Notes: generated from the letters alone by a model not told the origin. DNA of 63,239 nt, filler included, from Basidiobolus ranarum (GCA_040143965.1; 3 parts of 3 records of this genome joined end to end with filler, not necessarily neighbours in it), one strand, 5' to 3'. Positions 21,162-47,239 are shown, counted from the whole stretch's first letter. Made by a program: numbers and translations.

Positions 21162-21261
21162 NNNNNNNNNNNNNNNNNNNNNNNNNNNNNNNNNNNNNNN
21201 NNNNNTTAATTAATTAANNNNNNNNNNNNNNNNNNNNNNNNNNNNNNNNNNNNNNNNNNNN
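21162..21261. other. Artificial contig-join linker / gap
   Basis: 44 N + TTAATTAATTAA (stops in all six frames) + 44 N. Confidence 0.98.
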
Positions 21262-22300: not shown

Positions 22301-22935
22301 CACCTGGTGCTTTTCATCCCCCTAAGAGCTTATCCAGTATGATGCTTAAAGATATAGTCAAAATTTGTCATTTGTCGCAAACAACATATTGAACTTAAAA
22401 ACAACTCACTACAATCAGCAAAAATGTAGATAACATCACCAAACGCAGTGGAATCACCTTCATAATATCGAAGACTGTTATTTGGGCTCCAGTCCCAAAG
22501 ATTACACAGCTAATGAACACATATAACCGCTATTAGTACCCCCTATATCTCTGAATACTATTCACCAAGCCGAATTAATTGACCATATTGCAAACACCGA
22601 TACAGGAGTATGTTAGTTAGCAAGTTCAACTTGCTAGAGGAGCGTTACTTAAGTTTTACTTTAATTTTATGATATTGCACATAACGGCTACAGCTGCTGG
22701 CATTTTTAGTCTGCCTAATTAACGTTTAATAGTGTCTTCACCTGCCTTGCCTGTAGCTCGAGAAATCATTTTAAGCAATTGAGTTGGTGACGTTCGTTGT
22801 TTTCAGCATGCAACTTTGGAATTATTGAATGGTTTAATTTGTTTTAATATAGCAAGAAATTTACATTGTGAGGACATAGCTAATACTGTTATACATAGTT
22901 AGATGAGGCATGAAATTCGGTATATTCAGGGCTAA

Positions 22936-23889: not shown

Positions 23890-26882
23890 GGAAGGGCTCG
23901 TGTAGAGTGAGTTATTTTGAAGAATAATGTTTAGGGAATAGGGCATAAACATCTTAATGCTGAGCTTGTGAATTGGATATGAAGAGGTGTGCAACACTGC
24001 GTGCAACTTTTATAATGTAAAAGTGATGGATTAATATGACACAATCCCAATATCCCTATGTCTATCCCTTTCTCAATTAGAGTTTGCCATATGCTGATTT
24101 GGCAAAATCAATTTAGTCGAGTTCTTTTACTCCATCACGACTACAGTATGGGAATGAATTTGGCCCATACAAATTGCTTAACGTTTGGAGGATTTGCATC
24201 AGGCGCCAAATCTATAAATATCGCAGTATATTGAGCGTACCAACTAGTTAAATGGATCCACATTCGGTAGCTATGGCAATGATACAAGTTTAGAATAAGG
24301 TTTATGATGCGCTCTAGTACTCACTCCATACCCACTCCTTATCATGTGGTAAACAAATGAATATCAACTCCAACATAATCGTATGGGCCAACTGGCCAAT
24401 CAAGATGGCCACTGGAGCCGGATCATTCGTATTCTTCCGGTGGTGCTATGGATCTCATGATCAGGTTCCATAAATAACATATCATTAAGGTCGATGATCA
24501 TTTCTATTTTTAACAACAATACAAATATACAGGAATTTAGACAACACAGGATTCTATATTCTGTCATCATTATATTATCGCAAAGCTATTTTTGTACGAT
24601 CCCAGGCTGGAGTTGAAAAATTTGCCTCGAAATTTTGCTATAATAAGGGCCAAATTTTATGCAACCAGTATACAAAGAACAGCATTCCTTCCGTTTGGTC
24701 TTTCGGTCTAACTTCATTACGCATCTACAGAAAGTGAGACTTTACTTTTATCGATGGCTTTTCTAACTCTTTTACGAACAACCCTACTTTACTCGAATAC
24801 TGGTGATTCTCAATGTTGAAGGGGAAAGGGCATATTCATGCTATAACATCACAAAGGTACTAAACTTATAGTGCAACCACATTCTTTCCGCAGATCTCGA
24901 AATTTCTGCTTGTCCAAGCAAGTAGTTTTGCTGAGTATTCACAAGACACAAGAATACTCACGTAATATCTCTCTGTACCCCAAGCTGGTCGAACTCTTAT
25001 ATCTATATGGCTGAGTGACTAATAGAGTTAGAACTGATGTTTACTGGACAAACCTTGGAATGCCCATACTAATTGAACTTTGAGAAAAGATTGTCTGCCG
25101 CCAGGATTAATTTGGCAAGCTTCGGCTCATAAGATAAATGTTCTAAATAGGCTAAAACAATTAGTAATTTCTTAATAAGGAGATTGTCCTAAATTTGTTT
25201 CTATTCACTTGACTGATGGTTTTCATTTGGCAAGGTGATATAAATCCATTTGGTTCATGTCCAAATTTGTTAATTTTAGAGCGCCTAGCAGTTTCCAATA
25301 TCTTGCTGATGTCTGTCAATATACACTACAGTCGTTGTCAAATACAGAATCAGCTAGTGACCTGAAGAGTTAGGGTTAAGTAACAGTTTAACTCAGTGTC
25401 ATTAAAGCCTTTTTGGGCCAGTGTGAAAGTACTTAGGTAGCTATCTGAATCACTGTATGAGCAAGAATCTTCATATTCGCCCCGCCTGCTCAATTAGTCA
25501 TCAATAAATATTTAATAATCAATCATTACAAGAATCCATACTCACAAGGAAGTGGCTATTTTCTTGTTTTCGGTGTTGTAATCAGCGTACTTTGAGTTAT
25601 TAAAGGCACAGTTAAAATATCTAGTATTTACATTTGGGCAATTAAAGATCCATCAATTTATCTGACATCTATATTGATCTGATTTTCAATCAAATGGATG
25701 CCATAATTCCGATGTTCCTTTACCACTAGTATTTTCCTAGGTCAACTCAAAATGAGGATAGCAAATAATATGTTTCTGCGTAAAACTAGCCTTTAATAAT
25801 CAAGACTAGAAGATCTTTGTAGGTGCAACCCCAACTACCTTTAAATAGTCGTAAAAAGCATAAGGTAAATAGCATCCGTAATCTACACAAGACTACTGTG
25901 TAAGTCTACACATCGTCTACGCTAGATAACAACGCAGTTAATACCAGAGGAATTGCTAGATTATTTTACTTTTCATTCTCCGCTTCATTGTGAGGGACAA
26001 GGGCTATATATGATCAAGCAACTGGAAAGTCGAAGGAGAGTACCAAAATGCCTTCTCCGATTCAATCCAGTCTGATAACTCGGTTCATCGATTAGGCGAA
26101 GCATGGTACTCAGTTAGGGATGACCTTTGGTCAACTCTATAGAAGAAACGCTGCTCAAACTCTACTATTTCAGCTATGGTGGCATTTTACTTTTGGTCAG
26201 GTTTGGTTGCTTCATGGGCAATGCTACGAGTAAATAGTTGAAAGCAAATAAGTACATATGTATGCGCACCTGCTGAAGTAGACGTATCTGTTAGACGCTC
26301 TTATTCGCCACTTTGACTTCAACTCATTGGAATTTTAGTAATCCGTATAGTCTAGCCACTGTTAAACTTTAGCTCACTATCTCATAAGAATACTGATAAT
26401 CTAATTCTTCCTTAATAATGTAAGCAAAAATAATCTCCGATTGGGAGATAGAAGATGACACGGAAGCATCATTCGTTCAGATCTTGACAACCGGACCTAT
26501 TGTTTAGATGCTATATCGGGATCTGAACTAGCTGATGAAATTCAAATCCCAAGTGTTTAATTGGATAGAAAATGGAATTTTTCAGCTGTTCCGGTACATA
26601 ACCCATTAGCCCTTCTAAATGAGGGAGATTTGGTATAACACGTTTTCGAATGACATGTGGCTGTTGATGTAGTTATCTTTGAAAGAGAAATTCCATCTGG
26701 AGTATTCTATCCAAACCCAATCGGAATATCCAACTGTAACCTCTTTAGTTACTATTATACATCCCATACAGTATTGACAGAATTCCATATGTTTTGGTTT
26801 AGCCAGCCACGGATAGTGTAAATTCCCCATCCAGAGAAATAATTTGTCAACCTTTTGCCTGAGCTTAATAAAATCAACCAAT

Positions 26883-26966
26883 CAATTTCTCCCACCTAAT
26901 AATCATCCAATTTCTCCCACCTAATAATCATCCAATTTCACCCTCCTAATAATCATTCAATTTCAC
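26883..26966. repeat. 25-bp minisatellite, about 3.4 copies
   Basis: Unit CAATTTCTCCCACCTAATAATCATC starts at 26883, 26908, 26933 and 26958. The first two copies are identical; later ones diverge. Confidence 0.9.
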
Positions 26967-27459
26967 GTGTCTTATACTTGATCAAGATACGCCAGCATTA
27001 GTCACCAATCCTATCCCGTTTTCAACCTTACTGATGGGCACATTGTGATTGAGATGACCTGATCACCATACAATGTTTATGGATATCCTGTCAATTATTC
27101 TATGAGAATTGGATGAGGATAATCTCATTGTCCTTTTTGTGGATTTGCTGTTTATATAGGACACTTGCACAGTTCTGCTCTCAGATCCTTTGCAGGTGTT
27201 ATATTAGAGCCAGAGCGTTTTGAATAAATATTCAAGATAATTGTTTAGTTCTGAGGGTGTCAACGAATGTCATTTTGTTGTTACATTCAAATATACCTCT
27301 GCAGCACAGGTATCTATCAATGATGAGAAAAATACATATCTGGCTGCATTAGGGAGCCTATTTTATATTGGCACCTAAGGAAAATTAACAAAATAAATTA
27401 TCTGGGTGAGAGATTGAGAACTAAGTCATAAAGTTTTTACTGTGTTGTTCCTTTACCTC

Positions 27460-27476
27460 TTAGGGTTAGGGTTAGG
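27460..27476 (+). repeat. Short interstitial telomere-like repeat
   Basis: TTAGGGTTAGGGTTAGG. Confidence 0.6.
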
Positions 27477-30400
27477 TGCCAAACAGCCAGGTTTAACCAA
27501 ACAACAAATGGCACTTGAACATTTTGATAGATGCAGCATTAACATACAATCTGTGCTACCTATTTTCATCACTTAGTATGAAAGGCAAAAGAATGAGGGC
27601 TCTAACTGGTGAATTCTAAAGGCTACTTTAAATCATTGATTGAGTAACAAGAAGAATTTGTGTTGGCAGATCGTGACATAATGGGTATGGACTTTGTATA
27701 TTAAAGGCAACTTATGATAGTGTTTTAGTTACTTTATTCTTAAAAGAATATGGTGACTTATATAGCAGAAAAGTCAATCACTAGCTCAAGATATTCAGGA
27801 ATTTGCGTAATAAGATATAATAGATAAGTGAGGGTAACAAGATATTCTGGTTACATAGATATAGAGATTAAAATATAGTGGCCATAGATATGTTGCTTCT
27901 GCTTCTGATATATTTATCATAGCTAAGGTTAACCAAGGAGTTGAATAAAGATTAACCATCCAACAATTGCTCATCTAGAAATGGGACCATCCCCCAATTG
28001 AATTTTTGCCATAATGCATTGTAACCAAGTATTATAATCAGCTCTTTGAATGGGAAACTGTGAGATAATTTGTTGCAGAGTACTGCTACTAGGAAGAGTG
28101 GGGATGCTCTGCACTGTCTAATAGTCATGGCATCACCATCCTTCAGCGACCACTGAAATATTGATACGCCATGCTCTGCCCTAATTGAAATTTGGAGATA
28201 AATTGTACAAACCATCATGAGTATAACCATATTTTAGTTCACAGTCTTTATTCTGACATAAGATTTGAAAGATAGATTGAAGTCTATTCACCTTTTCAGT
28301 CTGAGGATTGGATTCCCCAGAGTGGCCAAATAGCTACTCATTATTGGCAACAATAACCAATAATGCAGGTTAAGTAACATTTGAGAAAAACAACTTAATT
28401 TAAACCTATCTAATAACTTGTAGACTAGTGTCCAGCCCTCAAACGGGAATTGTTGTTCGCAATAAACATAAGCTTAGATAGTCATTAATGGCTTGGCCCC
28501 AAGATAATGATAAGTTATATTTAAATTAAACCAAAACACAATATTGACTATCAAGACACTTAACATTAATATACAAGGTTTAGTATTGTAATCAGCAGTT
28601 ATAGAATGCATACATATTGTTGCAACGCTCTATCTTATGGCAATACCATTAAAATATTTGATCATCGACTACTGGATGATGGACGATCTGTGCTTTAAGT
28701 TATCAGCACATATGAGACGAAAAAAAATATCAGAACAGAAGGTCTACTTGGACTCGAACTTCAAATGTGATTTCAGGAAATCTACTGTCTGATCGTTGCA
28801 ACATTGGGTTATTAGTGCGACAAAATATACGTTAAATACAGGCAGAGATGTAAGTACGCTTTATCACCAATGATCCAAGTCTATTGATAGTTCCAATTGA
28901 TCATCGAGCCTGAGTTTGAGCATTTTGCAGTGTATTATTTAGTAAAGTTGGTCCATATATCGACCAGCAAGCGCAGGCATGTATGATTCAATAGAATAGT
29001 ACTCAGTATGCTTCTGAAAATTTGAATCATTGAGGTGCAAATCCGGGATGTATGGGTCTTTCGATTTAATATTAGCGGTCCCAACTTTGAGCTTTGCTGT
29101 TACATCCGGTAAGGATAGTTTGAAGCAAGAGTAATTTGGAGGATATAGAAGTGATGGAAACAGTAAGATACGCCGCCTCTGTGAGATATATTTGTTGAGA
29201 TGTTGTGATATTCTTGAATCAATGTATGTACCTAAGAGAAGACAGATATCTTGGCAGCTGTTCCTCTTACACTCTGATAGCTAAAAGTAAGGATGGTTGT
29301 ATAAGAATGGAATATACCCGACGTTTTTCTACAAATAAGCTGGATCTTGATTGCAAAGCTATGCTATAAAAATATTATGTGAATAGAAGTGCATAGCGTA
29401 TAATCACAAATATTCCACTTTTAGCCGCTCTAAAGAATACTTGAGGGAGTAATATACATAAGATGCATTTACCATATGCATTTACTAAAAACGTATCTGT
29501 ACTATTTGAGCAATAGAGTCAATAATTGTATTTGTCATCATTCTTACCGTAACATCGGCTTTGATTCGCTTTTTCTCGCAAAGAAAGCAGTGTTGAACTC
29601 TCTTCAGTAGCCACAAAGGCATGTCCAGCTCACCAAGTCTCTGTCATTTGAAATTCCAATTGATTTGTGTTCATGGTCAGTTGCATCTCTGGTGAGTAGT
29701 TACGTCTCAGACGTAAACTAGTTGGATATAGTTGGTGGGAATAAATCGCAACTGTGGCACTTATTCAGTAGCACCAATGGCAAGTGTAACCGTACCCGTA
29801 TATTAGCATAGCCACGAGTATAGTATAAGTCGGATATTACTTATTTAGCTGTCATTCATTGTTACCAGTCAACCTACCATCTAATTAATAAGTAACAAGA
29901 TTCCAACAAACGGAATATCAAGATCGGTATCAGGATAGAGATCTGCTTTCATGACTTTTAAAAATCCCTCTCACAAGAATTCGGTGGCGATCAAATGTTA
30001 TCGTTTCTTTTTAAATTCCTTAGCAATAATGTTCCCCACATGCGTATTTCCAGCAAGTATACAAGAATATCTTGAGTACTATCTGTTTTTCTCATGAAGT
30101 AATCTATCTTTGGCTAAAAGAAGAAAAAACGATCCAGTTTTTATTACTTCAGGTAAAGGACAACCATTGTAAGTTACGTTCATTATATATGTATACAACA
30201 TTCAAGACCTGGCCACTGTAGTCTAGAACAGTTCCTTAAGATCTTCATCTCCATACTTTGCACTTAGATTATCGGGACACAATCAGCAGTAGATTGGCGC
30301 GATGAATGTTTTATAAAAAATCCGGGTAGAGATGTGAGCTACTATAAGCCTTCCTCATAGTCGCTATTGTTGAAGCAAGCGTACACAAACAGAATATAAT

Positions 30401-31531
30401 TTAGTATATCTGAAAGGGGTCAAAATTATTCAAATAAGCACGACATATAATTTTCCAATTAAAGTATAGATTTACCTTTGAAAATCAATATTTTTATCAA
30501 TGCACCTCCAACTTGACCCAAATACTGACAGTAATTAGCTGAGTATACATATAAATAGAAATAAGAATAAGAATATATAGATAGTTTGAGCTATATAGTA
30601 CAGGTGCAAATTCGGGTAAAGTTGGTATTTGAAATCTACTAATGAAACTTCCTATTAGTGCCCCAAGATGCTCGTAATTAACTTCTTCAGCAAGATTATG
30701 AAGCACGTAAGATTATTGGTACCGATAAGGACTAAATGTAACCACATTACAAGCAGTCAACCCCTCTCCGAAGCTAAACTGGTAATACTTCAGTATAAAC
30801 TCTACAGTGACAGATGATGTAACTGCTATTTTCTAAGCACGATTGTTTCATGCATACCTAGCAAGAAATTAAGGTGCTATTGACTTTACTCCAAATTAGG
30901 AATAGATATACAAGATGCATCGGGGTTCATAATGCTAGATATTATATATATATAGGATCATATAATGCCTCTGTATAAATTCAGAGATTCCAACCAACCC
31001 AACCGCTTAATACTCTATAGACTCGTAATACATGGCAGAATCCTCATAGTTAATATCTGTGATATTCCTTTTGTATTACTTTTCTAATTGCAAGCCGATG
31101 TTTGTTATCGGTCAAATTCCATCGAGTTGTGTACAAAATCATAAATGAAAATGGACTTGTACCATAGACAATATATGGGGATACAGCAATCCAATATATG
31201 GTGCGTATGACAAGGTTGTTTGTTTTGGATTTGGTAGTACATGTTGAAACCTCCTCTTTAAAAATTTCAAAAACAATGCGCACCGCACTGTACGCAACCT
31301 ACGCCTACTGGTACTATAGGTACGTATGAAGCGGATCCACCAGAGATAGTATGCAAGTGAGGCTTTGATGTACTACACTTGTATGAGTTTTTACCTGCGC
31401 TAATACTTCTAAAATAGTAATGATTTACCAAGTTGAAGCTACGCATGCTGATTTTAGAAATAGAAGCACTTTCTTAAATAGCCTTATAAGCATGGGATAT
31501 CCACACTATTGAAGAAAACCATACCTCTACA

Positions 31532-34500
31532 ATGAGTGCATTGAACATTAGCCTGTGCCAATTTCCGCGGCTCCATAGCAATGAAGTTTCGAACTCAAGT
31601 GAAACTTTCCAAATTGCCCATTCAGATGTTGTAGATGAACTACCAGGACTCGAGAAAGCATTGATACATGCCGCATGGATAGTGTTACTTAACCTCTACA
31701 CCAGAAATTCTGATATCACTTATGCCTACGACGATGATCATGAGCCCTTATTGACTTTTTCCACTGTCTTCAACGAGGACACTGAGGATATTCCTGTGAT
31801 ACATTGGATTGGTCAATTGAATAAGGATCTGCAAGTAAATACACCAGAGACTTCCAGGTTATTTACTGAAGACACTACCAATGCATTCAACACCTATGTC
31901 TCCTTTCGCCGTCAAGAGAAAACAATAGAATTCCCACCGAATTCAGAGGTAACATCATATGTGATATTTAGATGAACTTAAGACTAAAGCTTACATTATA
32001 ATTTCATCTATATAGCTCGCAATTAGTCTGCTGGGCTGGCTTGAAGACGGCAACCTAACCGTTAAACTGACATTTTCAAAGAACCATTTTCAACTAGAAC
32101 AAGGTCAATTATTTGCTGAACAATTTGTTTACATTACAAATACCTTGCTCCAAAATTTGAACACTTCCATTAAGTCATTGAATTGGACCCCTGCCAATGA
32201 GAAATCCCTATTTCTGAATGAATGGCAAGCAGGAAAATCAGACTACTGTAAAGAACTAGACGATACCTGTATACACCACCTCATTGAACATCAGGTAGAA
32301 AAAACCCCCAAAAATATTGCTCTACAGTTTGAAGATAAGGAGCTAGTCACCTACGCCGAACTAAATAAGCGAGCTAATAAATTCGCTCACTTTCTTATTG
32401 CAACTGGTGTTGGACCTGAAGATATAGTGGCAATATGTCTGGAAAAATCAATCAATATGATTATTACAATCATGGCCGTGCTCAAAGCAGGAGCTTCTTA
32501 TGTACCTCTGGACCCAGAATTTCCGAAGGAACGTGTATCATTTATTGTCGAAGACACTAATGCTAAAATCATCATTACCACTACCGATTTAGAAATCGTA
32601 TTCAACCAATGCTCCGCTGTACAATTGTTATCATTAGATAGAGAGGATGTTGAGTTTAGCCAACAACCAGATACAAATCCCGAGATAGCAAATCTGAAAT
32701 CGTCCAACCTCTGTTATCTAATTTTCACTTCTGGTTCTACAGGAACTCCCAAAGGTGTGATGTTGGAGCATCGTGGAGTAGTCAATTATGTTGTTGCGCA
32801 TCAGAAGATCCTTAACCTCAGCCAAAACGATCGCTTTCTGCAATTTTCTAATTACACATTTGACGCATCCATACTTGATATCTTCGTTACTCTTACTACT
32901 GGATCTCGCATATGTCTAGCCTCCAAAAATAATCTGCTTACAAATTTGTCAGAGATGGCAAGTATGATGAAAGTGACCGCAGCTCAATTGACTACCACTG
33001 TTGCTGGTTTATTGAATCCTAACGAGGTGCCTACCCTTAAGCTTCTACAGCAAGGTGGTGAGATGTTAACAAAGCCGGTTCGTGATACTTGGGTCGAAGG
33101 AGTAACACTTCACAACGGTTATGGCCCAACTGAAACAACCGTATATACTATCATTAGAACATCTTTGAGTAAATTCACACCCTGCACCAACATTGGGTGG
33201 CCTATCGGTCGTAACAAAGTGTTCATCCTAAACGACAGGTTGGAAACCATTCCACTTGGTGCTATTGGTGAATTATGCTTTGGTGGGCCACAACTTGCTC
33301 GTGGTTATTTAAACAAGCCAGATCTCACTGAGAAAGTGTTTGTAAGTTCACCATTCACCAAGGGAGAACGTCTATATAAATCAGGTGATTTAGCTCGATT
33401 CAATCCAGATGGATCCATCACTATTCTAGGTCGTAAAGATAATCAAATCAAGCTTAACGGGCTACGAATCGAACTGGATGAAGTGGAGCACGCATTACAT
33501 CAGTATCCTGAACTATTAAGAGCATCGGTAAGACTATTAAATGTCAAAAAAAACAACAAAAATCGTGCTCTGGTGGCATTTCTGACTATGAAGAACATGA
33601 CTAAAGAGGACGGACCCGTAGTAACCATTGACAACCTTGAGTACCCCGAAGTTACCGCGCGCATATCAAAACTTCAAGACCATATGAGAACCAAGCTTCC
33701 ACCATACATGGTACCAACTATATGGGTACCCTTGACACGCTTTCCCATAACTACAAGCGGTAAAGTCGATTTAAGAGCTTTAGAAGCAATTTATAATATT
33801 AGTCCTCCAGATCACCTCCGAAGCTTCACCCAAGATCCCAAGGATATCAAAAGGAAGCCCAGCTCTCCACTTGAAGAGATATTGCTGAGTGTCTGGGCAG
33901 ATGTACTCAACATCGATATTTCTCTTATAGGTACGGATGACTCGTTTTATCACTTGGGAGGTGATTCTATTTCTGCAATTCAAATATCTTCTCAGTGTCG
34001 TCAAAAAGGTGTCAATGTCTCTGTCCAGAGTATACTGCTACATCCAACTATTCACCAACTTAACAACTACGCTGAATTTGCCACAGAAAAACATATATAT
34101 ACCACCGAAGACGAAGAGGAGGGACATGGCTTAGTTCCATTAACTCCAATTCAGCATCAATTCTTCGGTATCAACCAAACAGATGTAAACCATTTCCATC
34201 TTTCATGGCTGGTAAAAGTTAGAGAGCCGATTAGCGTCTCTGTGCTGCAGAAGGCAATAGATGATCTCGTCTCCCACCACTCGATGCTTCGAGTTCGATT
34301 CAAACATATAAATGGACATTGGGAGCAACGAATTCTACCAGAGAATGAGAATAATATCAATGTTCTGGAGTATCAAGTTTCCAATGTAAAGCAACTGAGA
34401 GCGAATATCTATCAGATTCAACGTAGGCTCTCGATTGAAAAAGGGCCTGTTAGTTCCTTCGTACTCTATAAACTTCCGGATGGTGAACAGCTAATGTTCA

Positions 34501-37500
34501 TGACCATACATCATTATCTTATAGATTTGGTTTCTTGGCGCATTATATGGGAAGACCTTGAAAATATACTTAGCGGGCAGCCTCTATCATATAAATCTTT
34601 GTCCTTCAAAGCTTGGAGTAAGCTACTAGGAATGCATGCCAGATCACTGAGCCTTGAAGATTATCCCAGTCAAGCACCGATAAAGCCATTAGATATTGAT
34701 GTAACAAAACTTCCACTAAACACAATGGAAACAGTAAATACCTTATCGTTTACCCTGGAAACCGAGCATACTAACCTGCTATTTGGTGCAAGTAACGACG
34801 TTTACAGAACAGAGGCTGTAGATTTCATGCTCTCTACTCTTGCAGCATCTTATTGTACTACTTTCAACTCCCAATCTCTGACTATTGCAACTGAAGGCCA
34901 TGGTCGAGAACCATGGAATGATTCCATTGATGTATCACGAACCGTTGGGTGGTTTACTTCAATCTATCCGGTAACTATTGAAAGACAGCCCGGAGATACT
35001 CTGATCGATGTACTAAAGCGAACTAAAGATGTTCGTAAGGGCATTCCACAACATGGATTCACGTATGGGCTGCTTCGATACTTGAATGAAGAGGCATCGA
35101 AAGTTCTTCGAAATGATCAGACACAAGTTGGCTTTAATTATCTGGGACGTTTCCAACATTTGGAGAAGACAGGGGCTCTCTTACAAGATGTCGATGATAA
35201 GTACAAATTTGACTTGAATCTTATTGGACCAAAATGGAGAAGAATGAATGCTATCGAAACCGAAGTAACAATACAGCACAATAACCTTACTTGCTCTATC
35301 TCTTACAGCAATGTCCTTCACAAGGAAGCAGATGTAAATCAATGGTTGCAATCATGGCGCCAATCATTAGTGGAGTTGGTTCATGTATGCGCGAATAAAG
35401 AGAAAGGAGAGCTAACTGTCTCTGACCTCCCACTTCTTGCGTTGCATGAAGACGAACTGAATCGATTGATCAATCAAATCTTACCTCAATATAGCCCAAA
35501 TCTTGGCTATAATGCGGAAGACATTTATCCTTGCTCGCCTATCCAGGAAGGGTTGATTATTGGAAATATGAGATCGCCTGAGCTCTATCATGTACAAGAT
35601 GTATACAAACTAGTTGGCGATCTGGATGTTGACCGACTGATTTCTTCTTGGAAAACAATAATACATGATCTCCCGATTTTGAGGACGGTATTTATCAACA
35701 ACCCATTTAGCCCAAGAACCTCCGGAGCGTACCTTCAGATTGTCCTGAAAGGATTAGAATTGAAATTCCAGCAATTTGCAGTAGAAAAGGATGAAATCAA
35801 TTCAGCTGTCAAGAATTATCTTGAAGGCGATTTAATCAAAGGATTCCCTCTCGGAGAGTCAAATATACGTTTATGCGTATTCCACGTTCGAAACGGCGAA
35901 AACAGGATGGTAATAAGTCGTCATCATTCCATTAACGATGGCTGGTCAGATAAAATTATTATGAATGATTTATCCGCTGTTTACAATGACACTAGGAGGC
36001 CTTCAGTTATTCCATATAAGGAGTACATTGCTCATCGCATGACCGAGAATAACGGTTTAGGCAATGATACAGGAGCAGATTATTGGGTAAGGTACTTATC
36101 CGGAACAGAGCCCTGTTCTTTTCCAAGGCTAGGGGGCCTAAGCGTCACCAAATCTGAGTGCTTACAACTAACCTCAAATGCTAAAATTGTAACTAAAGAT
36201 TTACGGAATTTTGCTAAGTCGGTGGGTGTCACACTTGCTACGTTGGTACAGGCAGCCTGGGGCCTAGTGCTACAGCCATATTATGCACAAGAAGATTTTA
36301 TATATGGAGTCATCACCAATGGTCGAAACATGGCCATGAAAAATATCGATAAGGTTATTGGACCTTGTATCAACACGTTGCCATTGAGAATTCAATACGA
36401 CAAAGAAATGCGCGTAGTAGATTTGTTGCGTAGAATTCATCTACACTTACTCACCAGTATTCCATTCCAAAATTGTGGTTTACAGAAAATCAACCAATGG
36501 TGTAAATCTAATGGAAACCCCATTAAATTTGACTCCATTCTTAATTTCCAATCTCTAGAAGACGATACCCAGGGGGACGATCAGTGTCAACTGAGATTTG
36601 AATTAGAGAGCATTTCGGAGCCAACAGAATACAAACTAACTCTAAATTCTTGGACTCAAAACGGATCAATTACCTTCCGATTGGATTTTAATAGCCATTC
36701 GGTAACTCGTACTCTGGCCCGCCACATATTGGGTAGATTGGAGGTAATTCTAGAAGCTATCATCAAGTCCAATAACGACACACAAATTCAAGTAATTCCC
36801 AAGATGACGGAATCAGAAAGAAATTTGATTAATGACTTCAACAAATCCAATTCCGAGGCCGTAGTGCAAGCACCAACCTATACGAACGAGGTTTTTGTTC
36901 ATGCATTGTTTGAAGATCAGGTTAGGATTAATCCGGACCGTGTGGCTGCTCAATACGAATCTTCTGAATTCACTACCTACAATGAGCTCAATAAGAGAGC
37001 AAATCGCCTAGCCCATCATCTCATAGAGAATGGTATTGGACCTGATATGATTGTTCCACTCTGTATGAACAAGTCGGTTTCTATGCTAGTAGCAATGCTA
37101 GCTGTTATGAAGGCAGGTGGTGCTTATACTCCTCTGGATCCTAAGAACCCAGTTGAACGAAATTTGTTTGTCATCAATGAAACTAAATCGAAAATCGTAA
37201 TCACGATGGATTGTTACAAACAATTCTTCCCGGATCAGAAGATTATTTCACTCGAGTCAGAAGTAGCTTTTGGCCACCACTCTGCCGAGAACCCAGAGGT
37301 TGAAAAACTGACACCATCCAACTTGTGCTATGTTTTGTTTACATCTGGCTCTACTGGCACACCTAAAGGAGTCATGTTGGAACACGCCGCAGTATGTAGT
37401 TCTATATGGGCCCAGAAAGCTATTTGGAATTTGAATGCAAATGATTCCGTGTTGCAATTTGCGTCATATACCTTCGACGCATCAGTCGTAGAGATATTTG

Positions 37501-40500
37501 TTACACTTGCATTCGGAGCTCGGGTATCAATGGCACCAAAAGAACGTTTACTCACAGATATTGAAGATGTTATTAACTCAATGCAGATTACTACAGCGTT
37601 GTTAACGACAACAATAGCGAGCTACATCCATCCCGCTAAGGTTAAATCGTTGAAAACGTTATTGGTAGGAGGTGAAATGATGACTGTAGCCGTTCGTAAT
37701 TCTTGGGCATCGATACTTGATTTAAGCAATATGTATGGACCTACCGAAGCGGCTGTGGCATTCTTGGTCAATCACAAGATAAATGAAAAGTCGTCATGCA
37801 GTAATGTTGGTAAGCCCATGGAAAGTAATGTAATCTATATTTTGGACTTGGATTTAAATCCTGTTCCTCTGGGAGTTGTTGGAGAGCTTTGCGTGTCAGG
37901 GCCACAACTAGCCCGAGGTTATTTAAATCGTCCTGATCTTACTGAAATTGCTTTCATACCTAATCCATTCACTTCTGGAGAACGCTTATATCGTACTGGT
38001 GATTTAGCACGTTATAATGTAGATGGCTCCGTAGAATTACTAAGACGAAAAGACAACCAAGTAAAATTACACGGGTTGCGTATTGAGCTAGATGAGATTG
38101 AGCATGCTATGTATGAGTATTCCAAAATTGGAAGAGCCTGTGTACTGCCTATAGTAACTGACTCTACTACAGACCATAAATCTCTAGTGGCCTTCTTAAC
38201 TTTCAATGGTCTAGTTGACAAATCTTCCCCAGTTGCTTTACTCAATGCTATTGATACTCCAGAGGCTGTGACACACACCGGTGAGGTTAGGGAACTTTTA
38301 AAGAAAACTTTACCGCCATACATGGTTCCAACTGTGTGGGTACCGCTCAGCGCGATACCTACCAATTCAAGCGGGAAGATCGATCGAAAGTTTGTCACTA
38401 CCATATATGAGTCGATTAGCAGAGATGATCTATTGTCATTCAGCGCATCCAACAATACCGACTATGTCGGGGCTGTTACACGAGTGGAACAAGATTGGAT
38501 TCAATTATGGGCTAAGGTGCTCCACATATCCGAGAAACTCATTGGTATTCACGACTCATTCTTTAATCTTGGTGGCGATTCAATCGTTGCTGTTAGATTG
38601 GTGGGTGCAGCTCGTCAATTTGGCTATGAGTTGAGTGTTCAACAGCTTTATGAGAATTTGACTATCGCAGAACTTGCTGCCAATACAGTGTTACTAAAAA
38701 GTGAAGACAAAGAGACAAAACCGATTGACAAGTATGAGCTTCTTAATCTTAAATCGGATGAGCTTGAGCACTTGTTGGATGTCGATATCAAACAGAATGG
38801 GATACTGCTCAGTAATGTAGAAGATGTATATCCATGCTCTCCTCTCCAAGAAGGTCTTATGGCCTTGGGCTTGCAAGATAACGTAAGTTACTTGAATCAG
38901 CAATTATATCGCTGTGAATCTGACATTGATATGGATCACTTCAAACATGCATGGAAATCAGTGATTGAAGCAAACCCTATTCTCCGCTCTACTATAATAT
39001 TTTCGGACAGCGGCTACTCTCATCTGAGTGGCCTCCAAGTTGTACTTGGAAGCGAGAGCATTGATTGGAATGTTTTAGATATTGAAAGGAGCGCTTTCTC
39101 TGAGAATTACTTGGCAGAAATATTAGATATGGATGTTAAGAAAGGAATACACGTTGGTCATCCACTAACCCGATTTACTGTTATCCGTATCGAGAATTCC
39201 ATGGCGTACTTCATATGGACCATTCATCATTCTTTGTATGACGGATGGTCCATGAGTTTGATGATTGAAGATTTAATCAATGCTTACCACTTGAAGGCAC
39301 TCTCAGCTAGACCTTCGTACAATAACTTCATCAAATATATCAGTGATAGGAAGAAGGAAGAATCACTAGCATATTGGAGAAAGGTGCTTGCGGATGCTGA
39401 GGTGACATATATAGCAAAACAATCTTCATCGGCATACAAAGACAAGTCATCATCGCAGCTTATTGAGAATATCAATGTGAACTTTACTTCGATAACAACC
39501 AAGCACAATGTGACAATAGCGACAATCGTCAATTTGGCGTGGTCTTTGGTTATGAAATTGCACACTGGCAGCTCTGATGTTATCTTCGGCGTGGTAAACT
39601 CTGGAAGAAATCTTCCGGTTAATGGTATACAAGAGATTCGCGGGCCATGCTTTAATACCCTTCCAGTTCGTGTAAATCTCGACAGTGAACTTACACTTCT
39701 GGATATCATGCTTCGTATTCATGGTTCTCAAACTGAACAACAACGTTACCAATCAATCGGACTGCAAGATCTTCTCAGGAGTTGTGTCGACATAAAAACT
39801 CCCTCTTTATTTGATTCTTTACTTGTCATTCAGAATCTTCCAACTGAAAGTATTGCTTCTAGTGTAGCTTCCATTGGACTAAAAGAGCTGAGTACTTCAA
39901 TGCCAGCAAATTACCCAGTTGTAGTCGAGCTGATAGCAGTTTCTGGGAAGCGTACACTTGCACTTACTTACGACAGTAATGTGCTCTCCGAGGGTGAAGC
40001 TCAATGGATATTTAGTCACATGAAGACAGCGTTGTCGGAGATCGTCAAGAATGTAAATATGCGAGTGAATGATCTCAGTGTTATATCTACAGAAGAGTCC
40101 GTTCTATTGAGTAGCTGGAGTAGTAATGCTACTATGCAAGACTGCAATTCACTCATTCATGAGTTGTTTGAAAAGCAAGCGCATCTTAATCCAGACCACA
40201 TAGCTCTCCAATTCGAAACATCCGAGTTCTTCACATACGCTGAACTCAATGCCAGAGTTAACCAATTAGCACATCATCTCATTGAATTAGGTGTTGTTCC
40301 CGATTCTACGGTGCCCCTTTGCGTTGACAAATCCGTTGACATGATAGTAGCCATGTTAGCTATTCTCAAATCGGGCGGTGCTTATGTGCCACTTGATCCG
40401 AATAATCCAGTTGAACGTAATAGATTCATCATTAGTGAGGTCAAAGCTACGGTAGTTGTCACATTCGATCGTTACAAGTGTTATTTCAGAGGAACAAGGA

Positions 40501-42202
40501 TATTCCTGCTTGACAATGAAGCAGAACTCCTTAGTCATCAATCAATTAAGAATCCTGTAGTTGAAAACCTTTCACCCTCCAATCTGTGCTATATCCTCTT
40601 CACCTCTGGCTCCACTGGTACACCCAAAGGAGTTATGATGGAGCATTCAGCTGTGGTTAACTTCCTCCAAGCATCGAACAGTATTTGGAATCTCACCGCT
40701 GATGATTCAGTTTTGCAATTTGCTAACTACACTTTCGACGCTTCAGTGAATGAAATCTTTTTCCCTCTTGCGTCTGGAGCTCGTATAGCTATGGCTCCAA
40801 AGGAAATCTTACTATCAAATATGGAGGAGACTATTGACAAAATGAATGTGACATCACTAGTGCTAACACCAACCATAGCTTCATGTATTGATCCCGCCAA
40901 GATTCCATCCGTAAAAAGGCTGATTCTTGGAGGTGAAATGATCACAACCACAGTTCGAAACTCATGGCTTCCTTATGTTGAGATAGCCAACGCTTATGGA
41001 CCAACTGAGGCCGCAGTGGCAATTTTAACTTACCTGAGCATCGACGAAAAAACCTCATGCAGTAACGTCGGAAAACCGATGGATGGTAACACCATTCGTA
41101 TCTTAGGGTTGGATATGCTTCCAGTTCCGATTGGAGTAGTTGGAGAACTGTGCGTAAGCGGTCCTCAACTTGCACGTGGCTATCTCAATCGTCCAGACTT
41201 GACAAAGAAAGCCTTCATAATGAACCCATTAGCAACTGATGAGCGCTTATACTGCACCGGTGACTTGGCTCGGTTCAACTCTGATGGATCTGTCGAATTG
41301 ATCGGAAGAAAAGATAACCAGATCAAGCTTCACGGCTTGCGAATCGAACTGGATGAGATAGAGCATGCTCTTTATGGCCACTCAAAGGTCAAGAGAGCTT
41401 GTGTACTTCCTTTGGTTACTGATCAATCCACAAATCGCAAGTCAATAGTTGCATTTTTGGCCTTTGGTGATATCACAGATGACAAACTCCCTCTAGAAAT
41501 ATTAACTGGTTCACTCGCATCAATCGCCGAAAGTCATATTGAAGAGTTGAAGAGTCAGGTGAGAGAACATCTCCCACCATATATGGTACCAAACATATGG
41601 ATTCCACTTAGTGCAATCCCAACCAACACAAGTGGAAAGATTGACCGTAACAAGCTTTCTACTTTCTTCAATACGTTGAGTCTCGAGGCCGTCGTTGGCT
41701 TATCAGGCTCTTCCAAAGAAAAGGACACCACTGCTTTGACTTCAATGGAGATAACCATACAAAGAATCTGGTCTGAAATTTTGAACATCCCCGCTTCCAG
41801 TTTCAGCATCGACGACTCATTCTATCAACTAGGTGGTGATTCCATTTCAGCCATTCGAGTATCATCCTCCAGTCGCCAAAATGGACTTTCCCTCTCTGTC
41901 AAGCAAATCATGCAGAATCCAACTATTCGTACTCAGGCCTCAGTTGCCACTTCAGTGGTTGAGAATTTAGTTGAAGTCAAACAGGTTTACAGGGATGAGG
42001 CTTTGCTCACTCCTATTCTGCAGCATTTCATGGAGACTCCTCAGGAAAACATACATCACTTCAATCAATCGTGGCTGCTTAAGCTGAGAGCCTCTATCAC
42101 CGTTGAAAGCTTGAATTTGGCCATTTCTTCTCTGATTCACCACCATGAGTTACTACGCAGTCGCTTTTCCTGTTCAGAAGGAAAGTGGAAAATCCAAATT
42201 CT
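31532..42202 (+). CDS. Multimodular non-ribosomal peptide synthetase: partial C0-A1-T1-E1-C2-A2-T2-C3-A3-T3-E3, 3' truncated by gap
   Basis: Exon 1 is 31532-31948, intron 31949-32015, then one open exon of more than 10 kb. Three A domains (FTSGSTGTPKGV, YGPTE, GDLAR). Three T domains (GGDSI near 33957, 38571, 41832). E1: LTPIQ, HHYLIDLVSW (34509), EGHGRE, RTVGWFT, FNYLGRF. C domains: HHSINDGWS (35922) and HHSLYDGWS (39225). A second E domain starts near 42000 (LLTPILQHF...HHFNQSWLL). Confidence 0.97.
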
Positions 42203-42302
42203 NNNNNNNNNNNNNNNNNNNNNNNNNNNNNNNNNNNNNNNNNNNNTTAATTAATTAANNNNNNNNNNNNNNNNNNNNNNNNNNNNNNNNNNNNNNNNNN
42301 NN
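42203..42302. other. Artificial contig-join linker / gap
   Basis: 44 N + TTAATTAATTAA + 44 N, identical to the first linker. Confidence 0.98.
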
Positions 42303-44769: not shown

Positions 44770-45013
44770 CATTAATCACTTGTAGTCAGCGACGAGAGTG
44801 GTCAAGCGCTACGGCCAACATCGATTTGTAGTTAACATTTGGGATTGGGGGTTCCTCGGGGTTTCATAAAATAGGTGGTTGACAAGTAATTTGGAAGACT
44901 TAAAATTATTATTCTTTTAACTTCATTTATTCCAGTATTTACTCTGCTATACTTTAGGTTTTCTTGAATAGTTCTCTTACTAATTTTCTTATAACTGAAG
45001 CATTAAGCTAGAA

Positions 45014-47239
45014 ATGACTACCGTTTTAATCGATAACTACGATAGTTTCACCTGGAACGTGTATCAATATTTATGTGAAGCTGGGGCTAACGTTATTGTA
45101 TTCCGTAATGATAAAACTACCGTCGAACATATAGCATCTTTAAAGCCAAAGAATTTGGTTATTTCACCTGGACCTGGACATCCTTCAGAGGATGTTGGCA
45201 TTTCAAAAGACGCAATTCGTCATTTTGCTGGAAAGATACCTATTTTAGGTGTATGTCTTGGTGAACAATGTATGTTTGAAATATTCGGTGGACAGGTCAC
45301 TTTCGCAGGGGAGATTGTACACGGGAAGGTATCCAAGGTCAAGCATGATGGTAAAGGGCTATATCATGGGGTTCCTCAAGATATAGCAGTCACTCGGTAT
45401 CATTCACTTGCTGGAGATCCCACCTTTATACCAAAGGAACTCATTGTAACCAGTCGTACTGATAATGGGATTATCATGGGAGTCAGACATAACAAGTATT
45501 GCATTGAAGGGGTTCAATATCATCCAGAAAGTATTCTTAGCGAACATGGCTCGATTTTAATTAAGAATTTCCTGAATTGTCGAGGTGGAACCTGGGAAGA
45601 AAACCCTGAATTAGAAGTGACTTCAACCACTGAACCTACTCCATTGGTAGATGACAAGAAATCTCAAACTATCCTTGAAAAGATTCATATACAACGACTT
45701 GCAGATATCGCTGAAGCTAAAGCCACCCCTGGACGTTCAGAAGCCCAACTCCAAAGACTTCTCGAATTAGGGATTGCCCCGCCACAAATTGACTTTGTAG
45801 CTAGACTGCGTCAAGGGCCTAGGAAGCCTGCGGTTATGGCAGAGATCAAGCGTGCATCACCCAGTAAAGGGGATATCAATGTTGATGCGATTGCAGCCGA
45901 ACAAGCTTTGATTTACGCTGAGGCAGGTGCTTCAGTTATTTCAGTATTAACCGAACCCAAATGGTTCAAAGGATCACTACAAGATTTGCGTCAAGCCCGA
46001 GAAAGTGTATCTAAACTTCCCAATCGACCAGCAATTCTTCGAAAAGATTTCATCCTCGATTCGTATCAAATTATGGAAGCACGTCTAGAAGGAGCTGATA
46101 CAGTGTTACTCATCGTGGCTATGTTGAAAGATGATGAAATTCAAAATCTCATGAAATACTCTAGATCCTTAGGTATGGAGCCTTTGGTGGAAGTAAATAA
46201 CGCTGCGGAAATGAAAAAAGCCCTGGCATTTGGTGCCAAAGTAATCGGCGTAAACAATCGAAATCTGCATACTTTTGATGTTGATATGGAAAACACTAGT
46301 AGATTGGCAGAGATGGTGCCAGAAGACGTTATTCTTGCCGCACTTAGTGGCATTACCGGGCCACAAGATGTGAGCAAATATATGGAACAAGGAGTTGGTG
46401 CAGTCTTAATCGGTGAAGCTCTAATGAGATCTCATGATAAAAAACAATTCATTCACAGTTTGATCCAGTCAGAGGCAACCGCGCCAACTACTCAACAATC
46501 CACTCCTTTGGTCAAGATTTGTGGTGTACGTACAGTTGAGGCGGCTGTAGAAGCGACTAAAGCAGGTGCCGACTTCATTGGGATGATTTTTGCACAATCT
46601 AAGCGTCAGGTGAACCTTGATGAGGCTTGCAAGATTGTCACTGCAGTTCGTGAGGCTTCGTCTGAGAAATCCGCTTCCGAAGTGCTAGAGCCATCAGTAG
46701 AGAGCAAAGAATGGTTCCGTTTTCACGCGGATAATGTTACCTACGGACAGAAGCCATTGATAGTAGGAGTGTTCCAGAATCAGAGTGTTGAGTATATCAC
46801 TTCTATTGTTCAACGGGTAAAACTTGATCTGGTACAACTTCATGGAGAAGAATCAGTGGAGACAGCCAAATTCTTACCAGTACGTGTTATCAAGGCTTTC
46901 CACATCGACGGCTCTTTCGATAACTTTAGCGAACTACGTAGACCAGGCTATAACGCATTCACTTTACTCGATGCCAAAGTGGAGACAAAACAACAGGGTG
47001 GAAGTGGAGTGACATTTGATTGGAATATAGCACAAAGATTCCTGAAAGATTCTATAAATTTGGAAGGAGATCAGTTCCCTATACTCTTGGCTGGTGGATT
47101 AACCCCAGAAAATGTACAGCTGGCAGTAAACCAGGTTCACCCTTGGGCAGTTGATGTATCAAGTGGAGTAGAAACCGACGGAGTAAAAGATTTACAAAAG
47201 ATCCGGGAATTTGTCAAGCGTGTAAAGAACAACCAGTAG
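45014..47239 (+). CDS. TRP1: Trifunctional tryptophan biosynthesis protein (anthranilate synthase component II / IGPS / PRAI; TrpG-C-F)
   Basis: IDNYDSFT, SPGPG, GVCLG and QYHPES (GATase); AEIKRASPSKG, SVLTEP and LRKDF (IGPS); VKICG, QLHG, LAGGL and VDVSSGVE (PRAI). Intronless, 741 aa. Confidence 0.98.
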   Translation: MTTVLIDNYDSFTWNVYQYLCEAGANVIVFRNDKTTVEHIASLKPKNLVISPGPGHPSEDVGISKDAIRHFAGKIPILGVCLGEQCMFEIFGGQVTFAGEIVHGKVSKVKHDGKGLYHGVPQDIAVTRYHSLAGDPTFIPKELIVTSRTDNGIIMGVRHNKYCIEGVQYHPESILSEHGSILIKNFLNCRGGTWEENPELEVTSTTEPTPLVDDKKSQTILEKIHIQRLADIAEAKATPGRSEAQLQRLLELGIAPPQIDFVARLRQGPRKPAVMAEIKRASPSKGDINVDAIAAEQALIYAEAGASVISVLTEPKWFKGSLQDLRQARESVSKLPNRPAILRKDFILDSYQIMEARLEGADTVLLIVAMLKDDEIQNLMKYSRSLGMEPLVEVNNAAEMKKALAFGAKVIGVNNRNLHTFDVDMENTSRLAEMVPEDVILAALSGITGPQDVSKYMEQGVGAVLIGEALMRSHDKKQFIHSLIQSEATAPTTQQSTPLVKICGVRTVEAAVEATKAGADFIGMIFAQSKRQVNLDEACKIVTAVREASSEKSASEVLEPSVESKEWFRFHADNVTYGQKPLIVGVFQNQSVEYITSIVQRVKLDLVQLHGEESVETAKFLPVRVIKAFHIDGSFDNFSELRRPGYNAFTLLDAKVETKQQGGSGVTFDWNIAQRFLKDSINLEGDQFPILLAGGLTPENVQLAVNQVHPWAVDVSSGVETDGVKDLQKIREFVKRVKNNQ

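Follow-up and report, generated by a model that had tools for sequence, protein, structure and literature searches.

The window considered here (the whole analysed stretch of 63,239 nucleotides, filler included) carries at 31532–42202, on the plus strand, a gene for a nonribosomal peptide synthetase (NRPS), which the homology search identified as K7432_005451 of Basidiobolus ranarum (100% protein match). An earlier note, made from the sequence alone, had ascribed the synthetase to an early-diverging fungus, and this attribution was correct. On translation, the gene gave two exons with 3,534 open codons and zero in-frame stops, and the public model of K7432_005451 (P0003) corresponds to exon 1 plus 3309 of the 3310 residues of exon 2. 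Exon 1 alone had no Pfam match; the splice junction (...PPNSE/LAISLL...) is present in P0003, and the alignment to the condensation (C) domain profile crosses the junction of the two exons unbroken. The stop-to-stop frame of exon 2 spans 32016–42251 and enters the run of N that starts at 42203.

The block that follows the gene had been taken in the earlier note for a gap that could be closed. It is instead an artificial linker joining contigs, and a second construct of the same N44-TTAATTAATTAA-N44 type lies at 21162–21261. The contig carrying the gene extends over 21262–42202 (20,941 bases, as for the contig of P0003), and what lies 3′ of the linker is housekeeping DNA unrelated to the gene. 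Because the block at 42203 is a join of separate contigs, nothing past 42202 belongs to the NRPS locus, and arguments from neighborhood across either block are invalid; the 3′ part of the gene, and with it any release domain, is missing from this contig. No direct DNA repeats of at least 40 bases were found within this contig, so intragenic repeats do not explain its break. A search for an overlapping continuation, with the last 70 residues as query against proteins of 124–2000 residues, scored none among 33 candidates. Four B. ranarum fragments that start inside an epimerization (E) domain (P0126, K7432_016567; P0127, K7432_018452; P0129, K7432_018450; and P0130) were found with the first E domain as query, but they show no overlap with the last residues of the gene and therefore none can be assigned to K7432_005451. 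Runs of shared 6-residue words that would signal a contig overlap were absent from all collected proteins, the maximum being 13 shared words, with the paralogue P0009.

Table 1. Features of the NRPS gene K7432_005451 and the adjoining linker, in coordinates of the window.
Feature	Position	Strand	Description and evidence
Exon 1	31532..31948	+	139 codons; equals the first 139 residues of P0003; ATG at 31532
Intron	31949..32015	+	67 nt, phase-0, spliceosomal, GT..AG (GTAACA...ATATAG)
Exon 2	32016..42202	+	ORF without stop, running off the contig end; 3395 residues translated
C-domain remnant	31544..32201	+	C-terminal half, without the HHxxxDG half, spans the intron; hhalign
A1	32262..33815	+	Code DALQQGGVYK; Pfam AMP-binding; 413.7 bits with TIGR01733 (cut-off 317.4); core motifs
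T1	33858..34085	+	Pfam PP-binding; GGDSI
E1, complete	34113..35450	+	HHYLID, EGHGRE, RTVGWFT, FNYLG; TIGR01720 above cut-off; PDB
C2, post-E type	35493..36818	+	HHSINDG; Pfam Condensation; C tree
A2	36888..38429	+	Code DAVLLGMVAK; Pfam, TIGR01733, core motifs
T2	38472..38705	+	Pfam PP-binding; GGDSI
C3, post-T type	38799..40130	+	HHSLYDG; Pfam Condensation; C tree
A3	40149..41690	+	Code DANVIGAVAK; Pfam, TIGR01733, core motifs
T3	41733..41960	+	Pfam PP-binding; GGDSI
E3 start, about 70 residues	41991..42202	+	Cut by the contig end; E HMM 38, PDB, PRK05691 alignment
Linker	42203..42302	.	Artificial, N44-TTAATTAATTAA-N44, joins contigs; no within-scaffold sequencing gap

Pfam searches on 11 overlapping pieces, together with our own domain HMMs, gave the order C remnant, A1-T1-E1, C2-A2-T2, C3-A3-T3, and the start of E3 (Table 1), in agreement with the earlier reading of an NRPS of at least three modules. 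All three A domains pass TIGR01733, with 399–414 bits, and the core motifs checked in them (A3 SGSTGxPKG, A4 FDxS, A5 NxYGPTE, A8, and the lysine of A10) were all present; in the motif A7, the third A domain has YCTGD instead of Y[RK][ST]GD. In the three PP-binding matches, GGDSI, the form taken here by the GGxS motif of the phosphopantetheine serine, lies at residues 648, 2186, and 3273 of P0001. Altogether, the core or catalytic motifs checked are present in three A, three T, and two C domains and in the complete E domain. In an hhalign comparison of seven paralogue N-termini with 12 Basidiobolus C domains, query residues 5–201 aligned to C positions 204–442 (probability 98.2, E 5.4e-14), whereas the same N-termini had no match to E domains. 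By this profile comparison, the N-terminal stretch of about 200 residues is a vestigial, presumably dead, remnant of a C domain.

Upstream of the gene, 13 ORFs of at least 70 residues were found in 21262–31600, and only one of them, an arrestin-domain ORF, had a Pfam match; it is followed by 7.5 kb of AT-rich DNA without a Pfam-bearing ORF of that length. This lack of partner genes within 10 kb upstream, as well as the many paralogues of K7432_005451, would be expected of a silent or decaying copy. Such a state is very unlikely for a gene that runs for 10.6 kb without a stop and has every checked motif intact. As judged from its sequence, the region 31532–42202 is the 5′ 10.6 kb of a native, multimodular, and probably functional B. 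ranarum NRPS gene.

The specificity codes given in the earlier note for the three A domains were reproduced exactly. They were read at the presumed GrsA code positions, anchored on the core motifs A4, A5, and A10. A search of the available literature with four code strings found no paper containing any of them. In the representative-library search, in which giant proteins are ordered by their summed score, the matches of A1 outside the family were at most 42% identical.

The separate E domains proposed earlier after modules 1 and 3 were also recovered, E1 as a complete domain and E3 from its beginning. E1 carries the E-domain motifs HHxxxD (as HHYLID), EGHGRE, RTVGWFT, and FNYLG. E1 scores 105.9 against TIGR01720 (cut-off 74.2), and its 10 PDB matches at E ≤ 1e-5 are without exception chains carrying E domains; in the alignment with bacitracin synthase 3, the E part gives 186 bits, as against 3 bits for the C part next to it. 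The identity of E3 rests on about 70 N-terminal residues, its catalytic motif region lying beyond the contig end. This stretch scores 38 with a single-sequence E HMM and has no hit at a domain E ≤ 1e-5 with a C HMM built from C2 and C3. Its PDB matches (best E 7.9e-07) are only the N-termini of PvdL, GrsA, bacitracin synthase 3, and TycB chains that are also matched by E1. It aligns to positions 2789–2857 of PRK05691, as E1 does, whereas C2 and C3 align to 3252–3705.

Each C-family domain has a single HHxxxD; at the N-terminus, C2 shows SPIQEG and C3 SPLQEG, with no HH in either. The signature of the bacterial dual E/C domains (a second N-terminal HH motif, HH[I/L]xxxxGD, and no separate E domain) is therefore absent from C2 and C3, which are ordinary C domains, unlike the dual ones of Mortierella, as had been suggested. 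The motif definition, placed near the N-terminus of the C domain, follows the available text of bioRxiv 10.1101/2020.08.21.262279. With an E domain of its own following each of modules 1 and 3 and no dual E/C domain, the previously predicted D-L-D pattern is a sound expectation for the start of the product.

K7432_005451 is not alone in its genome. The homology searches with residues 690–1600 (the E-C region) and with E1 as queries returned a family of 18 B. ranarum protein records and one B. meristosporus record. The starter module is carried by eight of them, at least seven from B. ranarum (including K7432_005451) and one from B. meristosporus, whose starter A domains form one clade (support 100); the code is DALQQGGVYK in seven of the eight and DALQQGGVCK in one. 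Furthermore, all 29 Basidiobolus A domains used form a single clade (99). As far as can be judged from these sequences, K7432_005451 is one member of a Basidiobolus-specific radiation sharing one starter module.

The nearest relative, K7432_005516 (P0006), has an identical starter code, with identities of 82% for A1, 82% for E1, and 73% for C2, and is likewise interrupted within an E domain, where its contig stops. It is nevertheless a distinct gene, with an E domain in the second module and the second-module code DIMIQGCVVK. The only complete paralogue seen, K7432_001523 (P0005, 5180 aa, B. ranarum), is 54% identical over the E-C region and begins with the same succession of C remnant, A (DALQQGGVYK), T, E, C, A, T, C, A, T. 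It differs in the codes of modules 2 and 3 and in an extra C-A-T before the last E domain, so that it has four modules, and it ends in A-T-E followed by a hit to the thioesterase family PF00975.

The structure of this complete paralogue bears on the number of modules. It demonstrates that in this family an E domain can immediately precede the release domain, and P0013 likewise ends in an E domain near its contig end. By analogy, K7432_005451 could be trimodular, with E3 as its last modifying domain, a thioesterase directly after it, and a D-L-D tripeptide as product. We consider this unlikely, because the start of E3 resembles the E domains of internal modules, with identities of 61–70% to P0035_E1112 and 52–56% to P0047_E1229 (52–70% overall), compared with 32–46% to three terminal E domains (32–39%, or at most 46%, for those of P0005 and P0013). 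In the internal E subclade, C-A follows in all four full-length members, and in the A tree A3 clusters with A domains from internal A-T-E-C modules. Since the start of E3 falls in a subgroup always followed by C-A, the synthetase likely has at least four modules.

Domain order and the standard thiotemplate logic of NRPSs suggest the following course of synthesis. A1 would activate an amino acid X1 and load it onto T1, where E1 would racemize the tethered residue. C2, which belongs to a clade of C domains always found after E and is by analogy expected to be selective for a D-residue donor, would join D-X1 to L-X2 on T2; C3, an ordinary post-T condensation domain, would add X3 held on T3, and E3 would epimerize the residue at the C-terminus of the tripeptidyl thioester. 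The growing peptide would thus start with D-X1, L-X2, D-X3. Judging by the homology of module 3 and the start of E3, a further C-A-T most likely follows, and release may occur via a thioesterase, as in K7432_001523.

Where the family came from was addressed by trees of its domains, made with FastTree or quick IQ-TREE from a hand-picked, named subset of matches in which many rows had an odd composition. In the E tree (93 rows), support was 100 for Basidiobolus, 99 for Basidiobolus plus Dikarya, and 92 for all fungi. The C tree (110 rows), one of the two phylogenies proposed in the earlier note, placed the family with Dikarya and apart from bacteria (99 for bacteria versus fungi): C2 lies in a clade of Basidiobolus post-E C domains, sister to the Dikarya post-E C domains, and C3 in a clade of Basidiobolus post-T C domains, sister to those of Dikarya. 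The A tree, the other one, established the single Basidiobolus clade described above and was uninformative on origin, since Dikarya, Basidiobolus, and bacteria with other early-diverging fungi meet at effectively one unrooted node. An IQ-TREE analysis of the E-C didomain (54 rows) separated fungi from bacteria (100) and grouped Basidiobolus with Dikarya (98), and the AU test against a Basidiobolus-plus-bacteria grouping gave only p=0.032, the group having been named after the tree was seen. The best phmmer scores were slightly higher to Dikarya than to bacteria in all seven domains tested. A mosaic, in which the A domains would be bacterial-like and the C and E domains fungal-like, was considered and rejected, because phmmer scored slightly higher to Dikarya for the A domains too. 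In our trees, the E and C domains appear to belong to the fungal, Dikarya-like type and not to be a recent acquisition from bacteria.

These results must be weighed against the alternative that the gene is bacterial-like and arrived by horizontal transfer, an origin that has been proposed for many Basidiobolus NRPSs and for Mortierella MpcA/MpbA. In the available text of PMC7466969, a major bacterial clade takes in 115 A domains of early-diverging fungi; of these, 104 fall in a surfactin-like clade, to which eight gene models of B. meristosporus contribute 32. In our data, the single intron in 10.6 kb and the PDB matches of A1 point the same way: the bacterial GrsA (1amu; rank 7 and the best single-A-domain match) at 6e-100, against 5e-52 for the fungal SidN. 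However, there are few fungal A domains in the PDB, so this ranking is no fair test of origin. The E, C, and E-C trees, within their limited sampling, the slight preference of the phmmer scores, and the lack of a dual E/C domain in K7432_005451 argue against such an acquisition, as does the GC content of the gene (0.41–0.43), which lies slightly above the value for the 10 kb of AT-rich DNA on its 5′ side (0.36) and agrees with the remainder of the window. We therefore regard a transfer from bacteria as quite improbable and retain the Dikarya-like reading of the E and C domains.

The initiation modules GrsA and TycA of gramicidin S and tyrocidine synthesis (PDB 1amu, 2xhg, 5isw, and 9bfd) likewise consist of an A-T-E starter that passes a D-residue to the next C domain, and in the PDB search E1 matched the E domains of TycA and GrsA with E-values of about 1e-50. 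They are, however, stand-alone bacterial proteins, whereas the Basidiobolus module is fused into one polypeptide behind a C remnant, and the trees place its E and C domains in a fungal clade. Among Dikarya, NRPSs such as the Pes1-named protein of Aspergillus lucknowensis (P0024) have the A-T-E-C unit as in Basidiobolus, and in our trees their E, post-E C, and post-T C domains each form a sister group to the Basidiobolus counterparts, but identity to K7432_005451 over the E-C region is only 27–30%, and several of the sampled Dikarya NRPSs end in C-T-C-T or C, with no thioesterase. MpcA and MpbA of Mortierella alpina (malpicyclin and malpibaldin synthetases) also come from an early-diverging fungus and make peptides with D and L residues. 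According to the available text of bioRxiv 10.1101/2020.08.21.262279, their N-terminal C domain is truncated to about 250 aa and has no HH motif, which is comparable to the C remnant described here. Unlike them, K7432_005451 has separate E domains followed by C domains.

Taken together, we consider it highly probable that K7432_005451 is a truncated multimodular NRPS with a D-L-D product start, belonging to a Basidiobolus-specific radiation and possessing Dikarya-like E and C domains. The background given in the earlier note (the rarity of such NRPSs, Basidiobolus as an exception with its peptides, and the dual E/C domains of Mortierella) agrees with PMC7466969, PMC10964425, and bioRxiv 10.1101/2020.08.21.262279, as far as the available parts of these sources go.

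As to the product, the available part of PMC10964425 describes the basidiosins and meristosporins of B. meristosporus as cyclic pentapeptides that resemble one another in structure and contain both D and L residues. K7432_005451 or its family might represent the B. ranarum counterpart of their synthetases, considering the separate E domains, the common starter module, the thioesterase in the complete member, and the presence of at least five modules in the B. meristosporus member P0007. This assignment is doubtful, though, and a cyclic product, as suggested in the earlier note, is conjectural, since any release domain would be encoded past the contig end. The complete paralogue K7432_001523 has four modules and not five, and among B. 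meristosporus proteins the closest one found shares just 55% identity with K7432_005451 over the E-C region. Moreover, Luo et al. (2020), as reported in the available text of PMC7466969, proposed a different NRPS for these peptides, tetramodular and N-methylating, a linkage that, per the same text, still needs genetic confirmation.

In conclusion, K7432_005451 is a new, uncharacterized member of an already known expansion of NRPSs in Basidiobolus. A broader picture can be put forward only tentatively, as a possibility that is far from favored: at least seven to eight synthetases would keep a near-invariant starter (a dead C remnant, A with DALQQGGVYK, T, and E) while their downstream modules are shuffled and duplicated, forming a natural combinatorial library of peptides with the same first D-residue, possibly of the basidiosin/meristosporin class; the machinery would have an old fungal ancestry, as sister to the E/C type of Dikarya, and would not be imported from bacteria. 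The natural products known from Zoopagomycota are few, 15 compounds in total in the accessible part of PMC10478498, and no peptide of Basidiobolus is known to be linked genetically to its synthetase; PMC7466969 asks for genetic confirmation of the proposed linkage. As the starter module is common to eight paralogues, the substrate of A1 would name the first residue of the whole peptide family. The E and C trees qualify the view that NRPS diversity in Basidiobolus is mainly of bacterial origin, and if the old fungal descent is true, NRPS chemistry with separate E domains and alternating D and L residues would predate Dikarya.

According to our analysis, the target gene, the NRPS K7432_005451 of Basidiobolus ranarum, is an open frame with the domain order A-T-E-C-A-T-C-A-T-E(start) and no in-frame stops over 3,534 codons, which confirms the observation made in the earlier note. 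On this domain order it is predicted to be a D-L-D-starting NRPS with separate E domains; this part of the earlier interpretation stands, whereas the "gap" placed at 42203 is really a contig end, where the linker construct is the same as at 21162–21261. Both constructs (44 N + TTAATTAATTAA + 44 N, at 21162–21261 and 42203–42302) are linkers of the six-frame-stop type that serves to string contigs. The window consists of three contigs (1–21161; 21262–42202, the NRPS-bearing piece; 42303 to the end) and is not one stretch of the genome; at 20,941 bases, the NRPS-bearing piece has exactly the length on record for the contig of the public protein that matches the gene at 100%. Since the contigs are joined in this way, the gene neighborhood is not readable across the linkers. 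The DNA after 42302 is not known to be linked to the NRPS.

Features of the NRPS gene and of the three contigs
Feature	Position	Strand	Remarks
Exon 1	31532–31948	+	ATG at 31532, 139 codons
Intron	31949–32015	+	67 nt, GT..AG
Exon 2	32016 to last contig base (42202)	+	Open frame
A1	32262–33815	+	Pfam + own HMMs
T1	33858–34085	+	Pfam + own HMMs
E1	34113–35450	+	Pfam + own HMMs
C2	35493–36818	+	Pfam + own HMMs
A2	36888–38429	+	Pfam + own HMMs
T2	38472–38705	+	Pfam + own HMMs
C3	38799–40130	+	Pfam + own HMMs
A3	40149–41690	+	Pfam + own HMMs
T3	41733–41960	+	Pfam + own HMMs
E3 (second E domain), start	41991–42202	+	Pfam + own HMMs
Arrestin-domain ORF	22939–24009	-	Sole gene seen on NRPS contig besides NRPS, upstream
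Glycine-cleavage T protein, GATase-IGPS-PRAI tryptophan-pathway gene, 3-beta-HSD family gene, TatD, ribosomal protein L3	after 42302		
GATase + IGPS + PRAI ORF	44999–47236	+	Different contig; single ORF of 746 codons
P4-type phospholipid-translocating ATPase	2685–5388	+	Different contig; exon-like ORF
PX/PXB/DUF3818 protein	13339–16583	-	Different contig; exon-like ORF

In the public model of the gene (P0003, 3449 aa), exon 1 is joined to a stretch that agrees with exon 2 at 3309 of 3310 residues. The model stops 86 codons short of the contig end (window 41943–42202) on an odd, non-matching residue, and therefore misses the beginning of the second E domain, which the open frame encodes. Upstream of the NRPS lie about 7.5 kb of AT-rich DNA (24000–31500, GC about 0.36), in which no Pfam-bearing ORFs of at least 70 residues were found; nor does this contig show a transporter, tailoring enzyme or regulator upstream. 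On the other contigs, the fused tryptophan-pathway enzyme looks ordinary, and the ATPase and the PX protein are ordinary housekeeping genes.

The domains were called with Pfam on 11 overlapping 600-residue pieces and with HMMs built from the gene's own domains, and both agree. Core motifs A3, A4, A5, A8 and A10 occur in all three A domains, all of which pass NCBIfam TIGR01733; motif A7 has the usual pattern in the first two and reads YCTGD in the third. GGDSI is present in every T domain (3/3), and HHxxxD in E1, C2 and C3. Three independent tests (motifs, TIGR01720 and PDB matches) identify E1 as an epimerisation domain. It carries HHYLID, EGHGRE, RTVGWFT and FNYLG, which we take to be the named E-domain motifs; TIGR01720 gives 105.9 bits (cut-off 74.2), with no match in C2 or C3; and each of the 10 PDB matches with E<=1e-5 is an E-bearing chain (bacitracin synthase 3, PvdL, TycA, TycB, GrsA). 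For bacitracin synthase 3, the one alignment displayed, the E part scored 186 bits and the adjoining C part 3 bits.

Of E3, the contig contains only about 70 residues and not the catalytic motifs, which lie past its end; this fragment appears to behave like E1. It scored 38 with the first (single-sequence) E HMM and had no match at domain E<=1e-5 with the first C HMM (from C2 and C3). In PDB it matches the N-termini of chains that E1 matched as well (best E 7.9e-07; PvdL C part 3.5 bits), and on the PRK05691 profile it occupies positions 2789–2857, with E1 at 2790–3239 and C2 and C3 at 3252–3705. At the other end of the protein, the first ~200 residues, across the intron, are by profile comparison what is left of a condensation domain's C-terminal half, with the HHxxxDG-bearing half missing: hhalign of the N-termini of seven paralogues against 12 C domains from Basidiobolus placed query residues 5–201 on C positions 204–442 (probability 98.2, E 5.4e-14) and found no match to E domains. 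A similarly truncated N-terminal C domain is described for Mortierella MpcA and MpbA in bioRxiv 10.1101/2020.08.21.262279, which also bears out the earlier statement on dual E/C domains in Mortierella.

From this family, the homology searches returned 18 B. ranarum protein records and one of B. meristosporus, most of them cut by contig ends. The starter module (C remnant plus A1-T1-E1) was found in eight records (seven B. ranarum, one B. meristosporus), seven of which open with a ~230-residue N-terminal region followed by A-T-E-C; the eighth, P0004, has its 5' end cut and begins at the A domain. The A1 domains of these records form one clade (100*). The target's closest paralogue is K7432_005516 (P0006), with 82% identity in both A1 and E1 and 73% in C2. 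The only complete member seen is K7432_001523 (P0005; 5180 aa), with remnant-A-T-E-C-A-T-C-A-T-C-A-T-E and a thioesterase family match. The 29 Basidiobolus A domains included all fall in a single clade (99*), and therefore the family expanded through duplication inside the lineage.

Specificity codes were taken at what we assume to be the GrsA positions (235, 236, 239, 278, 299, 301, 322, 330, 331 and 517), anchored on motifs A4, A5 and A10 and not on a residue alignment to 1AMU. The three strings of the earlier note were reproduced exactly: DALQQGGVYK (A1), DAVLLGMVAK (A2) and DANVIGAVAK (A3). The starter code is identical in seven of the eight records and DALQQGGVCK in the other. The last modules of the B. 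ranarum paralogues P0005 and P0013 share DALNQGGVAK, close to the starter code, and thus the first and last residues of their peptides may be similar. Four code strings were looked for in literature text, and no paper containing any was found.

Since the gene is cut by the contig end, its module number is inferred and not read in the window. Three subclades can be distinguished among the Basidiobolus E domains: module-1, "internal" (P0013_E1501, P0004_E2226, P0035_E1112, P0047_E1229, each followed by C-A) and "terminal" (P0005_E4551, ahead of the thioesterase, P0013_E3022, P0125_E448). Identity of the E3 start is 61–70% to P0035_E1112, 52–56% to P0047_E1229 and 32–46% to the terminal group, and the third A domain clusters with those of A-T-E-C modules. 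It is quite probable, on these resemblances, that the target has four or more modules. Four short B. ranarum fragments start inside internal-type E domains (P0126, P0127 and P0129 at position 130, P0130 at 175), two continuing into a C domain; each of these is a possible continuation of the target or of the two further paralogues that break off at this point. In three B. ranarum NRPS contigs (target, P0006, P0009) the sequence stops ~70–80 residues into an E domain, where the assembly seems to break repeatedly.

NRPS enrichment in Basidiobolus is documented, and much of it ascribed to transfer from bacteria, in PMC7466969. Our trees included only organism-named homologues and left out unnamed metagenome proteins; they were quick runs on a biased sample, with compositional warnings. 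The E tree (FastTree; 18 rows from Basidiobolus, 30 from bacteria, 27 from Dikarya, 14 from other early-diverging fungi and four C-domain outgroup rows) recovered Basidiobolus (100*), Basidiobolus with Dikarya (99*) and all fungi (92), with bacteria apart. The C tree (110 rows) separated bacteria from fungi (99*), placing C2 within a Basidiobolus post-E clade sister to that of Dikarya (93) and C3 within a Basidiobolus post-T clade sister to its Dikarya counterpart (87). Post-E and post-T domains split within bacteria and independently within fungi, kingdom first and type second; this order could reflect separate origins of D-donor C domains or a tree artefact. The E-C didomain tree (IQ-TREE LG+G4 quick, 54 rows x 939 columns) separated fungi from bacteria (100*) and grouped Basidiobolus with Dikarya (98*). 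An AU test of Basidiobolus with bacteria gave p=0.032, a weak result for a group named post hoc, after the tree was seen. For each of the seven domains tested, the best phmmer score to Dikarya slightly exceeded that to bacteria, and the A-domain tree, a three-way junction, decides nothing on origin. Together, the trees argue against a recent bacterial origin of the target's NRPS family, without settling the matter.

According to PMC10964425, the basidiosins A–L and meristosporins A–C of B. meristosporus are cyclic pentapeptides that resemble one another in structure and contain D and L residues. The portions available of PMC10478498 and PMC11376311 add nothing on biosynthesis. bioRxiv 10.1101/2020.08.21.262279 confirms that dual E/C domains occur in Mortierella. 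A literature search on Basidiobolus NRPS, basidiosin and meristosporin returned no paper characterising any B. ranarum synthetase, the target included.

In conclusion, the target NRPS is new and uncharacterised, while Basidiobolus NRPS genes as such are already known; what is worth keeping is the starter module conserved across eight paralogues and the fungal, Dikarya-like affinity of the E and C domains.
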